From Octopus vulgaris (taxonomy: Eukaryota), in assembly GCA_951406725.2 (NCBI GenBank), contig OX597824.1, positions 25,234,001-25,298,000 of the forward strand: DNA of 64,000 bases. The letters run 5' to 3'. The position numbers and the translations under genes are program-made. The notes beneath the pieces are model-generated. The model worked only from the letters and a program-made list of their open reading frames with translations. It was not told the DNA's origin and did not search any database. Position 1 is the stretch's first letter, and the number at the start of each line of letters is the position of its first letter. Positions 19,920-33,020 of the stretch are shown here, piece after piece.

Positions 19920-22900
19920 TATAAAATTAATTAAGGGTAGAAATTGATATTTATCAATTAAGACCAGTGGTCTAGCATATTAAAAAAGAATCCGAAGATT
20001 AAAATATTTATATATACCAATTAAGGACTGAACACGAAAAGTGGACAGTCAACATGCTAGATATAGACGTCAAATCGTCATTCACCACAAAAGATTATGT
20101 TCTCAGATCAAACTCAACACAAAACCATAGCAATAAACAAGTGAAAAATATACGAAATAAAATAATTACCCATGTACTAACTTAGTTTCAGCTGTTATTT
20201 TCCGCAAGGAAAACTGCAGCCATCATCAGCATGGTCCGTTATAAATGTAATTTGCTGGACTAGATGCAAACACGATACCGAAATATCGCGTGCATGGAGT
20301 TCAGCCTATTACATTTGAATATATCTTTCAAATGCCTTTACTTTGGCGCGTTGAAACCCGAGAAAACTAGCCTGCAGCTAATAATTAGCAGCAGTTAATT
20401 TATCGGTTAGAGAACATATTTATTTATATAAAATTAATTAAGGGTAGAAATTGATATTTATCAATTAAGACCAGTGGTCTAGCATATTAAAAAAGAATCC
20501 GAAGATTAAAATATTTATATATACCAATTAAGGACTGAACACGAAAAGTGGACAGTCAACATGCTAGATATAGACGTCAAATCGTCATTCACCACAAAAG
20601 ATTATGTTCTCAGATCAAACTCAACACAAAACCATAGCAATAAACAAGTGAAAAATATACGAAATAAAATAATTACCCATGTACTAACTTAGTTTCAGCT
20701 GTTATTTTCCGCAAGGAAAACTGCAGCCATCATCAGCATGGTCCGTTATAAATGTAATTTGCTGGACTAGATGCAAACACGATACCGAAATATCGCGTGC
20801 ATGGAGTTTAGCCTATTACATTTGAATATATCTTTCAAATGCCTTTACTTTGGCGCGTTGAAACCCGAGAAAACTAGCCTGCAGCTAATAATTAGCAGCA
20901 GTTAATTTATCGGTTAGAGAACATATTTATTTATATAAAATTAATTAAGGGTAGAAATTGATATTTATCAATTAAGACCAGTGGTCTAGCATATTAAAAA
21001 AGAATCCGAAGATTAAAATATTTATATATACCAATTAAGGACTGAACACGAAAAGTGGACAGTCAACATGCTAGATATAGACGTCAAATCGTCATTCACC
21101 ACAAAAGATTATGTTCTCAGATCAAACTCAACACAAAACCATAGCAATAAACAAGTGAAAAATATACGAAATAAAATAATTACCCATGTACTAACTTAGT
21201 TTCAGCTGTTATTTTCCGCAAGGAAAACTGCAGCCATCATCAGCATGGTCCGTTATAAATGTAATTTGCTGGACTAGATGCAAACACGATACCGAAATAT
21301 CGCGTGCATGGAGTTCAGCCTATTACATTTGAATATATCTTTCAAATGCCTTTACTTTGGCGCGTTGAAACCCGAGAAAACTAGCCTGCAGCTAATAATT
21401 AGCAGCAGTTAATTTATCGGTTAGAGAACATATTTATTTATATAAAATTAATTAAGGGTAGAAATTGATATTTATCAATTAAGACCAGTGGTCTAGCATA
21501 TTAAAAAAGAATCCGAAGATTAAAATATTTATATATACCAATTAAGGACTGAACACGAAAAGTGGACAGTCAACATGCTAGATATAGACGTCAAATCGTC
21601 ATTCACCACAAAAGATTATGTTCTCAGATCAAACTCAACACAAAACCATAGCAATAAACAAGTGAAAAATATACGAAATAAAATAATTACCCATGTACTA
21701 ACTTAGTTTCAGCTGTTATTTTCCGCAAGGAAAACTGCAGCCATCATCAGCATGGTCCGTTATAAATGTAATTTGCTGGACTAGATGCAAACACGATACC
21801 GAAATATCGCGTGCATGGAGTTCAGCCTATTACATTTGAATATATCTTTCAAATGCCTTTACTTTGGCGCGTTGAAACCCGAGAAAACTAGCCTGCAGCT
21901 AATAATTAGCAGCAGTTAATTTATCGGTTAGAGAACATATTTATTTATATAAAATTAATTAAGGGTAGAAATTGATATTTATCAATTAAGACCAGTGGTC
22001 TAGCATATTAAAAAAGAATCCGAAGATTAAAATATTTATATATACCAATTAAGGACTGAACACGAAAAGTGGACAGTCAACATGCTAGATATAGACGTCA
22101 AATCGTCATTCACCACAAAAGATTATGTTCTCAGATCAAACTCAACACAAAACCATAGCAATAAACAAGTGAAAAATATACGAAATAAAATAATTACCCA
22201 TGTACTAACTTAGTTTCAGCTGTTATTTTCCGCAAGGAAAACTGCAGCCATCATCAGCATGGTCCGTTATAAATGTAATTTGCTGGACTAGATGCAAACA
22301 CGATACCGAAATATCGCGTGCATGGAGTTCAGCCTATTACATTTGAATATATCTTTCAAATGCCTTTACTTTGGCGCGTTGAAACCCGAGAAAACTAGCC
22401 TGCAGCTAATAATTAGCAGCAGTTAATTTATCGGTTAGAGAACATATTTATTTATATAAAATTAATTAAGGGTAGAAATTGATATTTATCAATTAAGACC
22501 AGTGGTCTAGCATATTAAAAAAGAATCCGAAGATTAAAATATTTATATATACCAATTAAGGACTGAACACGAAAAGTGGACAGTCAACATGCTAGATATA
22601 GACGTCAAATCGTCATTCACCACAAAAGATTATGTTCTCAGATCAAACTCAACACAAAACCATAGCAATAAACAAGTGAAAAATATACGAAATAAAATAA
22701 TTACCCATGTACTAACTTAGTTTCAGCTGTTGTTTTCCGCAAGGAAAACTGCAGCCATCATCAGCATGGTCCGTTATAAATGTAATTTGCTGGACTAGAT
22801 GCAAACACGATACCGAAATATCGCGTGCATGGAGTTCAGCCTATTACATTTGAATATATCTTTCAAATGCCTTTACTTTGGCGCGTTGAAACCCGAGAAA

Positions 22901-25900
22901 ACTAGCCTGCAGCTAATAATTAGCAGCAGTTAATTTATCGGTTAGAGAACATATTTATTTATATAAAATTAAATAAGGGTAGAAATTGATATTTATCAAT
23001 TAAGACCAGTGGTCTAGCATATTAAAAAAGAATCCGAAGATTAAAATATTTATATATACCAATTAAGGACTGAACACGAAAAGTGGACAGTCAACATGCT
23101 AGATATAGACGTCAAATCGTCATTCACCACAAAAGATTATGTTCTCAGATCAAACTCAACACAAAACCATAGCAATAAACAAGTGAAAAATATACGAAAT
23201 AAAATAATTACCCATGTACTAACTTAGTTTCAGCTGTTATTTTCCGCAAGGAAAACTGCAGCCATCATCAGCATGGTCCGTTATAAATGTAATTTGCTGG
23301 ACTAGATGCAAACACGATACCGAAATATCGCGTGCATGGAGTTCAGCCTATTACATTTGAATATATCTTTCAAATGCCTTTACTTTGGCGCGTTGAAACC
23401 CGAGAAAACTAGCCTGCAGCTAATAATTAGCAGCAGTTAATTTATCGGTTAGAGAACATATTTATTTATATAAAATTAATTAAGGGTAGAAATTGATATT
23501 TATCAATTAAGACCAGTGGTCTAGCATATTAAAAAAGAATCCGAAGATTAAAATATTTATATATACCAATTAAGGACTGAACACGAAAAGTGGACAGTCA
23601 ACATGCTAGATATAGACGTCAAATCGTCATTCACCACAAAAGATTATGTTCTCAGATCAAACTCAACACAAAACCATAGCAATAAACAAGTGAAAAATAT
23701 ACGAAATAAAATAATTACCCATGTACTAACTTAGTTTCAGCTGTTATTTTCCGCAAGGAAAACTGCAGCCATCATCAGCATGGTCCGTTATAAATGTAAT
23801 TTGCTGGACTAGATGCAAACACGATACCGAAATATCGCGTGCATGGAGTTCAGCCTATTACATTTGAATATATCTTTCAAATGCCTTTACTTTGGCGCGT
23901 TGAAACCCGAGAAAACTAGCCTGCAGCTAATAATTAGCAGCAGTTAATTTATCGGTTAGAGAACATATTTATTTATATAAAATTAATTAAGGGTAGAAAT
24001 TGATATTTATCAATTAAGACCAGTGGTCTAGCATATTAAAAAAGAATCCGAAGATTAAAATATTTATATATACCAATTAAGGACTGAACACGAAAAGTGG
24101 ACAGTCAACATGCTAGATATAGACGTCAAATCGTCATTCACCACAAAAGATTATGTTCTCAGATCAAACTCAACACAAAACCATAGCAATAAACAAGTGA
24201 AAAATATACGAAATAAAATAATTACCCATGTACTAACTTAGTTTCAGCTGTTATTTTCCGCAAGGAAAACTGCAGCCATCATCAGCATGGTCCGTTATAA
24301 ATGTAATTTGCTGGACTAGATGCAAACACGATACCGAAATATCGCGTGCATGGAGTTCAGCCTATTACATTTGAATATATCTTTCAAATGCCTTTACTTT
24401 GGCGCGTTGAAACCCGAGAAAACTAGCCTGCAGCTAATAATTAGCAGCAGTTAATTTATCGGTTAGAGAACATATTTATTTATATAAAATTAATTAAGGG
24501 TAGAAATTGATATTTATCAATTAAGACCAGTGGTCTAGCATATTAAAAAAGAATCCGAAGATTAAAATATTTATATATACCAATTAAGGACTGAACACGA
24601 AAAGTGGACAGTCAACATGCTAGATATAGACGTCAAATCGTCATTCACCACAAAAGATTATGTTCTCAGATCAAACTCAACACAAAACCATAGCAATAAA
24701 CAAGTGAAAAATATACGAAATAAAATAATTACCCATGTACTAACTTAGTTTCAGCTGTTATTTTCCGCAAGGAAAACTGCAGCCATCATCAGCATGGTCC
24801 GTTATAAATGTAATTTGCTGGACTAGATGCAAACACGATACCGAAATATCGCGTGCATGGAGTTCAGCCTATTACATTTGAATATATCTTTCAAATGCCT
24901 TTACTTTGGCGCGTTGAAACCCGAGAAAACTAGCCTGCAGCTAATAATTAGCAGCAGTTAATTTATCGGTTAGAGAACATATTTATTTATATAAAATTAA
25001 TTAAGGGTAGAAATTGATATTTATCAATTAAGACCAGTGGTCTAGCATATTAAAAAAGAATCCGAAGATTAAAATATTTATATATACCAATTAAGGACTG
25101 AACACGAAAAGTGGACAGTCAACATGCTAGATATAGACGTCAAATCGTCATTCACCACAAAAGATTATGTTCTCAGATCAAACTCAACACAAAACCATAG
25201 CAATAAACAAGTGAAAAATATACGAAATAAAATAATTACCCATGTACTAACTTAGTTTCAGCTGTTATTTTCCGCAAGGAAAACTGCAGCCATCATCAGC
25301 ATGGTCCGTTATAAATGTAATTTGCTGGACTAGATGCAAACACGATACCGAAATATCGCGTGCATGGAGTTCAGCCTATTACATTTGAATATATCTTTCA
25401 AATGCCTTTACTTTGGCGCGTTGAAACCCGAGAAAACTAGCCTGCAGCTAATAATTAGCAGCAGTTAATTTATCGGTTAGAGAACATATTTATTTATATA
25501 AAATTAATTAAGGGTAGAAATTGATATTTATCAATTAAGACCAGTGGTCTAGCATATTAAAAAAGAATCCGAAGATTAAAATATTTATATATACCAATTA
25601 AGGACTGAACACGAAAAGTGGACAGTCAACATGCTAGATATAGACGTCAAATCGTCATTCACCACAAAAGATTATGTTCTCAGATCAAACTCAACACAAA
25701 ACCATAGCAATAAACAAGTGAAAAATATACGAAATAAAATAATTACCCATGTACTAACTTAGTTTCAGCTGTTGTTTTCCGCAAGGAAAACTGCAGCCAT
25801 CATCAGCATGGTCCGTTATAAATGTAATTTGCTGGACTAGATGCAAACACGATACCGAAATATCGCGTGCATGGAGTTCAGCCTATTACATTTGAATATA

Positions 25901-32684: not shown

Positions 32685-33020
32685 CAAAGTAAAGGCATTT
32701 GAAAGATATATTCAAATGTAATAGGCTGAACTCCATGCACGCGATATTTCGGTATCGTGTTTTCATCTAGTCCAGCAAATTACATTTATAACGGACCATG
32801 CTGATGATGGCTGCAGTTTTCCTTGCGGAAAATAACAGCTGAAACTAAGTTAGTACATGGGTAATTATTTTATTTCGTATATTTTTCACTTGTTTATTGC
32901 TATGGTTTTGTGTTGAGTTTGATCTGAGAACATAATCTTTTGTGGTGAATGACGATTTGACGTCTATATCTAGCATGTTGACTGTCCACTTTTCGTGTTC
33001 AGTCCTTAATCGGTGTATAT
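32685..33020 (+). mobile_element. Inverted 336-bp terminal segment of the array
   Basis: Reverse complement of unit interval 20010-20345 with 3 substitutions; runs into (TA)n. Confidence 0.95.
32796..32860 (+). ncRNA. Type I hammerhead ribozyme in the inverted segment
   Basis: CCATG CTGATGA TGGCTG..CAGCT GAAACTAAGTTAGTA CATGG read directly on the plus strand. Confidence 0.9.

Follow-up and report, generated by a model that had tools for sequence, protein, structure and literature searches.

Tandem hammerhead repeats such as newt satellite 2 and schistosome Sm-alpha have been read as satellites. In the available text of PMC7229834, the newt repeats are mentioned alongside retrozymes, and coral retrozymes are described as multimers of up to 62 units. 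Copying of retrozyme circles into tandem DNA by Penelope-like elements (PLEs) is a proposal made since 2020 from co-occurrence and homology; in the portions of the retrozyme papers available, circles and cleavage are demonstrated and the copying step is not. Cleavage was found in one of nine predicted frog retrozymes (Li et al., bioRxiv 10.64898/2026.07.22.740005). A PLE protein extends both target strands from two RNA start sites that define a 'tail', and an anole PLE inserts in vitro without need for hammerhead cleavage (PMC11167929). Our literature search found no description of the octopus family reported here, nor of inverted two-site ends in retrozymes.

The window, a 64-kb stretch of Octopus vulgaris DNA, contains an array of 507-bp units that had been predicted to run in one direction from 19920 to 33020. 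This holds as far as 32684, whereas 32685–33020 is an inverted 342-bp arm carrying a plus-strand hammerhead. In unit coordinates (q), where q1 is the predicted cleavage site, the long arm (19920–32684, minus strand, about 25.2 tandem units) extends from q166 to an outer end (A, about q255) that meets the left TA tract. Its 25 minus-strand type I hammerhead motifs are spaced, as expected, at exactly 507 bp, from the first at 20170–20234 (predicted cut between 20175 and 20174) to the last at 32338–32402. The head-to-head inversion junction (32684–32685) joins q166 to q337 without overlap and is the same in the upstream paralogue. From there the short arm (32685–33020, plus strand) proceeds from q337 via the cleavage site to a second outer end, B (about q160), and into the right TA tract; it holds the 26th hammerhead at 32796–32860. 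Further elements of the original prediction were borne out, including near-identical units (only four variant positions across the 25), their non-coding nature (no open reading frame of at least 120 amino acids inside the array) and a position within a (TA)n tract whose paralogous site near 6400 is empty. The target survives as a left remnant (19906–19919) and a right tract (33016–33161), and the empty TA site (6384–6515) belongs to the middle copy of a 13.5-kb segmental triplication. Any target duplication is unreadable inside this microsatellite. The unit has a GC content of 33%, and ARAGORN reported no tRNA in 19800–21500.

The hammerhead has the stem sequences, CUGAUGA, GAAA and GUA site earlier described: a 5-bp stem I, CUGAUGA with an extra U, a long stem II, GAAA, a 4-bp near-palindromic stem III and GUA. 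The word 'canonical' proved inapt, given the extra U after A9, the long stem II and a G10.1-U11.1 pair in place of G-C, this position being G-U in the array's subfamily; an older variant, as at locus L105, has G10.1-C11.1. The motif also gave no Rfam hammerhead match, either at the gathering score (whole window) or at E<=10 (19900–20950). This failure weakens the label 'canonical' rather than membership in the retrozymes, because the papers that defined them used pattern descriptors and not Rfam. PLE hammerheads have been characterized by an extra base between 9 and 10.1, a long helix II and a palindromic helix III (PMC4209133), and all three traits are present in the array's motif. Across variants the core is invariant except at N7, and the stems covary across subfamilies: 9 of 21 pairs changed on both sides among 12 variants, a number reached in none of 500 shuffles, with the structure drawn from the window's own copy, which favours that structure over the slid controls. 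Free energy alone does not fold the 111-nt piece that had been proposed for cleavage assays into the ribozyme (z -0.98), and the active fold of the 65-nt motif lies 2 kcal/mol above the predicted minimum. The 507-nt monomer is predicted to be 66% paired, with a folding z of -7.3 against shuffles.

Genome searches gave hundreds of matches on many contigs. The exact hammerhead 21-mer occurs 409 times in the genome and a wider hammerhead pattern 898 times, while the ends joined to TA match 799 times for B and 380 times for A; all reversed controls gave 0. If the density seen on the first four contigs is extrapolated, about 360 such 21-mers are expected; the filled locus pair described below holds 60. 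Subfamilies at 66-81% identity have the same circularly permuted, ORF-free layout. The matches on many contigs, together with the empty paralogous site, indicate that the copies are dispersed and mobile. A copy of a second family lies at 62706 of the window; one hammerhead scan missed it, so that scan is not a census. Part of the stretch was found in 19 of 24 sequencing-run entries, none recorded as RNA and 14 presumed to be RNA by guess only. The four runs examined consist of contigs, from which neither ends nor strand nor circularity can be read. Pieces with 90-99% identity were also present under another organism code (X12).

Most insertions have the anatomy of the array. Among 105 scored loci, chosen three ways, 78 were A+B, 19 had one arm, 5 were A+other, and there was one each of A+A, other and complex, with no B+B. 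In the 39 loci that were not selected by their ends (all those with the first 100 hammerhead matches), a hand count gave 26 A+B, 9 with one arm and 4 other. A and B are two fixed AU-rich sites of the RNA, 95 nt apart, at which the head-to-head arms end in (TA)n. Both arms are multimeric in 5 of the 78 A+B loci. Arm stops fall at q1-12, adjoining the cleavage site, in 7 of 96 cases (P 0.008). Among 48 A arms, five end at q159-177 (P 0.03), and site A is not a preferred stop for B arms (3 of 48, P 0.5).

Two fixed ends may reflect two primings, one at each end of the target, which we consider somewhat the better account. The other possibility is a single priming, after which the first cDNA folds back and is copied to give the inverted arm, and this arm pairs with the remaining TA end. 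For inversions in PLEs, self-priming has been proposed (PMC3846280), and folding back accounts for haplotypes common to both arms. It also agrees with stops at the same position within 15 nt (11 of 48 at long loci and 20 of 33 at B-selected loci), some of them inside palindromes; in 29 of 78 A+B pairs the two arms end within 15 nt of each other on the unit, which folding back explains as well as a shared template end does. However, A+A or B+B insertions should then be frequent, and they number 1 and 0 of 105. In 11 of 78 pairs neither arm contains the other, which counts against folding back since it cannot yield non-nested arms without later trimming, and the 5 A arms stopping at q159-177 do so where a second primer would sit. 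We therefore regard a single priming as unlikely; it would alter only the third step of the account given below and is compatible with a circular template.

The two fixed ends, inverted arm and TA targets support the suggestion that a Penelope-like enzyme wrote these copies, as does the same anatomy in two autonomous Neptune copies (L174 and L176), each with its 5' arm inverted and its two ends, separated by 42 nt, in TA. The genome contains intact PLEs, with 781-codon open frames that encode RVT_1 and GIY-YIG and end in TA. Mobilization of the retrozyme by a PLE is very likely, and the partner is probably a TA-targeting Neptune. An autonomous PLE with a homologous pLTR was absent from 30 GIY-YIG loci, 12 loci with the 781-codon frame and the window's Neptune, in a search that scored 150 of 6136 GIY-YIG candidates, nearly all of one clade. 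The best partner match (L142) was rejected, as it lies upstream of the ORF and on the other strand. Comparison of the unit with the window's Neptune pLTRs and the 7959–8970 insert, like that with the two sets of loci, gave only short AT-rich matches.

The unit might itself be the pLTR of an unsampled autonomous PLE, with the dispersed copies as its 5'-truncated products. Its hammerhead and ends are of PLE type, most PLE insertions are 5'-truncated, and frog retrozymes are sister to pLTRs (Li et al., bioRxiv 10.64898/2026.07.22.740005). Against this, no ORF was continuous with the 5' side of the unit in any of 116 loci, an outcome that upholds the earlier preference for a non-LTR retrozyme over an amplified pLTR. 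PLE ORF pieces were present in the fetched stretch at 7 of these loci, all separated from the unit or beyond its 3' end. The upstream neighbour of the unit is instead a further unit, an arm in inverted orientation, TA sequence or unrelated flanking DNA, even in old subfamilies, and we consider a pLTR origin of this kind highly improbable. Plant LTR retrozymes, defined by a type III hammerhead in LTRs, a PBS and PPT and a 4-bp target duplication, do not match the type I topology, the tandem units and the lack of an LTR pair seen here.

Units within an insertion share one haplotype. At four markers, 0 of 55 (the commonest marker), 0 of 55, 0 of 44 and 1 of 39 loci were mixed, against 41, 39, 26 and 20 expected if units were drawn from a pool; this count dropped 19 of 311 aligned pieces (below 96.5% identity), piece edges and TA-running ends. 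Fourteen locus-private substitutions are present in all units that cover the site, and in 10 cases this extends to both arms, although with 64 of perhaps 150 loci read such 'private' variants may derive from source loci outside the sample. The other private variants comprise 91 singletons and 9 partly shared. A single haplotype per insertion is expected if one monomer, probably a circle, was copied repeatedly, in line with what had been suggested for the array. A single-monomer template, whether a circle or re-copying of the same molecule, is likely.

The same family and enzyme could also have operated with no circle, from uncut linear multimers whose arrays were afterwards rebuilt and homogenized in DNA by unequal exchange or gene conversion. 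Unprocessed RNA is the main substrate of the anole PLE in vitro (PMC11167929), and the 7 of 96 arm stops at q1-12 suggest some linear templates with a cut 5' end. Change at the DNA level is also real at this locus, where 25 units contrast with 33 and variants recur, and 13 variants found in only some units of a locus point to post-insertion tandem duplication at other loci as well. Nevertheless, at sites covered at least three times there are 70 singletons as opposed to 9 partly shared private variants, and most arrays are therefore older than their mutations. Ten of the fixed variants span the inversion. Although more than one haplotype is frequent (markers at 21-42%), the 409 count leaves scant room for other long source arrays. 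Linear templates of this kind are accordingly judged quite unlikely.

The length of the array probably has a separate history. Upstream of the window lies a third copy of the 13.5-kb segmental unit, in which this insertion is also found, its junctions identical and its units numbering 33, so that the order is filled (33 units), empty, filled (25 units). The insertion had been thought younger than the duplication; this stands for one of two duplications and fails for the other, which the insertion predates because the upstream paralogue is already filled. All four array variants recur, each in 2-3 units. In 64 other loci there are 1-7 same-strand hammerheads per locus, with at least two in 36. 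Given the 33 units of the paralogue, the recurring variants and these short loci, the idea that the 25-mer itself was a product of reverse transcription is not sustained. The 25-unit length is read as later growth because the 64 other loci have at most seven, and expansion of the long arm at the DNA level is likely. Searches with 1-unit and 5-unit queries did not place the array or its upstream paralogue among the best 38 of 1662 and 36 of 1739 matches; since these searches scored few candidates, other long arrays may occur elsewhere in the genome.

The long arrays, or the duplication that holds both, might alternatively be assembly artefacts around a short true insertion. Over 16.8 kb the 33 upstream units vary by a single substitution and a single indel, below the expectation from 0.2% flank divergence; near-perfect arrays of 13-17 kb approach long-read length, and the filled-empty-filled order could represent joined haplotypes. 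However, 22 of 10,383 flank positions, one short-arm position and the unit variants distinguish the two filled copies, the unit period is exact throughout, and the family and its insertion anatomy are independent of this locus. An artefact is thus improbable. The locus would then record a retrozyme insertion that became a 13-17-kb satellite after inserting, which separates two sources of tandem copies.

We propose, with a probability of about 0.68 for the account as a whole, that a non-autonomous, ORF-free retrozyme inserts by means of the reverse transcriptase and endonuclease of a PLE in six steps. A locus with at least two same-strand units would be transcribed. The hammerheads would release 507-nt monomers, to be circularized by a host ligase, as suggested by other retrozymes and by the conservation of the motif. 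The PLE protein would then cleave a (TA)n tract on both strands, priming cDNA at A and B, one for each target end, in keeping with the observed ends. Each enzyme may circle the same monomer repeatedly, giving arms from a fraction of a unit to about seven units, of the one haplotype observed. The two cDNA ends would be joined head-to-head via microhomology or short templated patches, as seen at the junctions. Finally, unequal exchange within the tandem segmental duplication may have produced the 25 and 33 units. More tentatively, a dimeric Penelope-type reverse transcriptase may prime twice, from both target strands, on one circular RNA and travel round it, with the ribozyme-made circle as an obligatory intermediate; the family would have persisted without a protein gene or homologous partner through >20% divergence, like a genome-resident viroid.

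The family is a further member of the non-LTR retrozymes, with putative cleavage, circles and partner enzyme. Its tandem units are non-coding and include two or more complete type I hammerheads; it also has a conserved hammerhead core and stems, a low-GC, self-paired monomer and dispersed copies. The animal non-LTR retrozymes of coral, mussel and axolotl, in the available text of PMC7229834, likewise have tandem, non-coding, low-GC units with one type I hammerhead each, a highly self-paired monomer, dimers to multimers, and PLEs in the same genome. They differ in sequence and in unit length (170-400 nt versus 507 nt), and that text gives no account of insertion ends, inverted arms or per-locus haplotypes, the word 'inverted' being absent from it; it does demonstrate circles and cleavage, which in the octopus family are predicted. 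Newt satellite 2 and Sm-alpha, by description, differ from the octopus family, in which most insertions are short and scattered and a single locus pair with long arrays was observed.

A PLE origin and mobilization of retrozymes were also proposed by Li, Clavereau and Pollet (2026; bioRxiv 10.64898/2026.07.22.740005), whose units of 51-972 bp and arrays of up to 300 units span the 507 bp and copy number found here; array length and unit size are not themselves new. Their evidence was co-occurrence and pLTR homology, no mollusc was sampled, and arrays were ascribed to local amplification; the octopus family shows PLE-type ends together with a monomer bottleneck, but no pLTR homologue among the PLE loci compared. 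As in a non-autonomous PLE derivative, a tailed head-to-head inverted arm and a PLE-type hammerhead occur with an intact PLE of the same target in the genome. In the available accounts, insertions of endonuclease PLEs (Penelope/Poseidon, Neptune and Naiad; PMC3846280, PMC8557442, PMC11167929) share partial tandems, a head-to-head inverted 5' arm, a 'tail' confined to one end, targets that are AT-rich or (TA)n, and palindromes or microhomology at the inversion. The octopus unit differs in having no ORF, a tail of 95 nt rather than 30-40, and arms that can both be multimeric; each of its two ends falls on a TA-like stretch of the RNA, in contrast to priming by the anole element, which uses no homology to the target (PMC11167929). 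Non-autonomous Chlamys elements such as MRC1, as far as PMC8557442 is available, are also non-coding PLE parasites with multicopy head-to-tail insertions. However, their 3' end resembles that of the autonomous partner, and they belong to a clade without canonical hammerheads, while the octopus family has a conserved hammerhead and partner homology was not found. Circle-templated Penelope mobilization could be tested directly with this family: its monomer is defined, its two start sites are mapped, its target is known, its young copies are nearly identical, and the genome also has intact PLE open frames. The per-locus haplotype and A/B end tests are applicable to any retrozyme family.

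The 507-bp array consists of two arms of opposite orientation. In unit numbering from the predicted cleavage site (q1-q507), the long arm (19920-32684) holds about 25.2 head-to-tail units and extends between q166 and its outer end at about q255 (site A), where a short TA tract adjoins. A motif scan of the window placed 25 minus-strand hammerhead motifs in this arm, spaced at the exact period, in agreement with the original prediction of 25 such motifs in 507-bp units. That prediction had also described 19920-33020 as one uniform array, which is correct up to 32684. At 32685, the orientation flips into a previously unreported plus-strand arm of 342 bp, which starts at q337, includes a 26th hammerhead (32796-32860, plus strand) and has its outer end at about q160 (site B), against a TA tract (33016-33161). 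Tandem Repeats Finder made no call of the 507-bp array, because its maximum period is 500.

Stems I and III of the hammerhead have 5 and 4 bp, and stem II is long and interrupted; the strands between the stems read CUGAUGA, followed by an extra U, and GAAA, and the predicted cleavage site is GUA. PMC4209133 lists an additional base, a long helix II and a palindromic helix III as marks of the hammerheads of Penelope-like elements (PLEs), and all three are present here. Rfam did not recognize the hammerhead of the unit (window and 19900-20950), and the originally proposed check against curated models thus returned no match. Free-energy folding favours, by 2 kcal/mol, an alternative to the active fold in which the core pairs with the 3' strand of stem III; the 507-nt monomer as a whole is far more stably folded than its shuffled versions (z -7.3). 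Among 12 variants of the same genome, hand-picked to span subfamilies, the core is invariant bar N7 and 97% of cells pair. Both-sided changes occur in 9 of 21 hammerhead pairs, a count as high being found in 0 of 500 shuffles, while slid controls gave at most one such pair. This variation supports the candidate ribozyme structure. Positions 10.1-11.1 are G-U in the window's subfamily versus G-C in several older subfamilies, which may slow the putative ribozyme of the former.

The insertion is located within a 13.5-kb unit that is present as three tandem copies (window 1-43786 plus 25 kb upstream; 99.5-99.8% identity outside microsatellites), and each copy has different TA-tract insertions. One of these, a 1-kb non-coding A-rich insert (7959-8970) in a TA tract, has direct repeats of roughly 165 bp at its termini; it is present in the middle copy only and looks like another non-autonomous PLE derivative. 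The upstream copy (G000:C11 ~25210623-25227799, contig coordinates) carries the same ribozyme insertion as the window, sharing its A end, q166/q337 junction and two B-end changes. These two filled copies differ at 22/10,383 flank positions, and from the empty middle copy at 51/10,440 and 38/10,370 (raw counts; 5 of the 22 and 9 of the 51 lie within a trinucleotide run). Therefore, the insertion postdates the splitting-off of the empty copy and predates the separation of the filled copies. The earlier view that it is younger than the duplication holds for the first split and fails for the second, since both filled copies carry it.

The long arm has 33 hammerheads in the upstream copy versus 25 in the window. 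Each of the four variants in the array of the window is found in more than one unit (6/12, 7/13, 16/20 and 2/13/21), as block duplication would leave it, and only 1-7 same-strand hammerheads occur at each of 64 other loci. For these reasons, the 25-mer most likely began as a short insertion and expanded afterwards, contrary to the original proposal that a reverse transcriptase wrote it as such. The array copy number may also reflect assembly error.

The exact hammerhead 21-mer has 409 genome matches and a wider pattern 898; a B end followed by TA has 799 and an A end followed by TA 380, with 0 for every reversed control. Loci were read in four sets: 38 chosen by likeness to the full unit, 26 others, which complete the group of 39 loci with the first 100 hammerhead matches, 40 of the 58 additional B-end loci of contig 1, and 12 from older subfamilies. 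The first three sets and the window were scored jointly (105 loci). At 78 loci, two arms lie head to head, one ending at A and the other at B (A+B), and B+B was found at 0; the others were single-arm (19), A with another end (5, of which 2 were called A+B in an earlier scoring), A+A (1) and other or complex (2). A hand count of the 39-locus set, for which ends were not a selection criterion, gave 26 A+B, 9 one-armed and 4 other. Inner junctions are variable and mostly overlap by 0-10 nt; some have palindromes, and short patches of templated sequence also occur. The short locally templated insertions at the inversion junctions of L096, L099, L100, L130 and L061 resemble polymerase-theta end joining. 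Subfamilies 66-81% identical have the same ends and the same circularly permuted layout. Five loci (L069, L073, L081, L090, L092) contain a 505-bp subfamily with multimers of its own, and unit variants of 506, 508 and 513 bp are each fixed within other loci.

In a haplotype test of 64 loci (292/311 pieces kept), mixed loci numbered 0/55 at q97, 0/55 at q91, 0/44 at q419 and 1/39 at q327, whereas drawing units from the pool would give 41, 39, 26 and 20. Fourteen locus-private substitutions are present in all covering units, 10 of them spanning both arms; there are 91 private singletons, 9 partly shared private substitutions and 4 partial shared variants. A mutation arises in one unit yet is fixed in all units and both arms, which requires a one-unit bottleneck followed by multiplication. 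One RNA monomer, copied round as a circle or by repeated jumping on its linear form, would yield such a single-haplotype insertion in one step, and the two routes are equally compatible with the data. Circle-templated tandem cDNA synthesis by a PLE enzyme was proposed in PMC7229834, where retrozyme circles and cleavage, not the copying, are demonstrated. It is possible that the templates were instead uncut linear multimers from arrays homogenized in DNA: 'private' variants may mean unsampled source loci, and 7/96 arms stop at q1-12. However, this requires a homogeneous source array per haplotype, and by extrapolation the 409-match count leaves little room for long source arrays beyond the window locus pair. 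At L052:2209-3219, two neighbouring units have two private substitutions in common, as well as changes at the first bases past the cleavage site; this reflects either a scar of ligation or duplication at a later stage.

The two arms halt at nearly equal unit positions above chance (11/48, P 1e-4; 20/33 in another set), which fits a shared template end and fold-back of the first cDNA into an inverted arm alike. Two priming events are nevertheless favoured, because A+B pairing is near-strict, arm pairs are not nested at 11/78 A+B loci, and A arms halt near site B (5/48, P 0.03), the window's insertion among them. Sites A and B are both TA-like in RNA; annealing of these ends to the TA target is therefore likely on sequence grounds, for this family and not for the anole PLE. 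A PLE enzyme would then prime from both target ends, at sites A and B. A purified PLE protein was shown to cut both strands of its target and to extend them, with starts at two RNA sites and the tail as the interval between these; the protein is predicted to be a dimer (PMC11167929).

An inverted 5' arm, a tail at one end only and microsatellite targets are described for endonuclease-bearing PLEs (PMC8557442, PMC3846280), and the 507-bp insertions resemble these in all three. Many PLEs reside in the genome, GIY-YIG matches making up 148 of the 150 candidates scored out of 6136. Many of these sit in open frames of 781 codons that encode RVT_1 and GIY-YIG, with a cysteine motif ahead of the endonuclease, which can be read as Neptune-type from the clade description in PMC8557442; in two such copies (L174, L176), the 5' arm is inverted and the ends lie in TA, 42 nt from each other. 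The window itself holds a near-complete Neptune-type PLE (47288-52315, plus strand), unrelated to the 507-bp unit. It has direct 463-bp terminal repeats in flanking TA tracts (47288-47749 and 51857-52315; 98.9% alike), a minimal hammerhead-like motif within the terminal repeat, near 47615-47645, and a frame broken near 49850, beside a short tandem duplication.

The unit could in principle be an amplified terminal repeat (pLTR) of an autonomous PLE. This is disfavoured because none of 116 loci has an ORF continuous with the unit's 5' side, in line with the original preference for an independent retrozyme. PLE ORF pieces occur in 7/116 loci (4 read directly, 3 judged by position), and the PLE termini examined (30 GIY-YIG loci, 12 long-frame loci and the window's Neptune) have no homology to the unit. 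A second family of type I hammerheads, also long in stem II but unrelated to the unit, lies at 62706-62793 (plus strand) and recurs at the flank of L143 as a head-to-head hairpin insertion adjoining TA; it is a candidate second retrozyme family. At L180:1034-3387, a PLE ORF fragment is followed by some 270 bp that match the sequence upstream of this second hammerhead; at a 5-nt microhomology, these give way abruptly to an old member of the 507-bp family. This single case represents either nesting of one insertion in another or a switch of template, the latter possibly pointing to the partner enzyme. Elsewhere in the window, a 121-aa frame (35252-35617, minus strand) resembles part of a Tc1-type transposase.

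Literature searches found neither a description of the 507-bp family nor one of retrozymes with inverted ends at two sites. Passages and one supplement of the Octopus vulgaris repeat annotation (PMC13282606) mention no hammerhead, ribozyme or retrozyme, although its library may include the unit under a different label. The family matters mainly by making the proposed retrozyme copying mechanism testable. At the sequence level, the element falls within the definition of animal non-LTR retrozymes and is a candidate for cleavage and circle formation. A recent preprint (bioRxiv 10.64898/2026.07.22.740005) argues that retrozymes are non-autonomous PLE sequences and gives units of 51-972 bp in up to 300 repeats, from a sample that includes no mollusc; the unit length and copy number of the window's array lie within those ranges.
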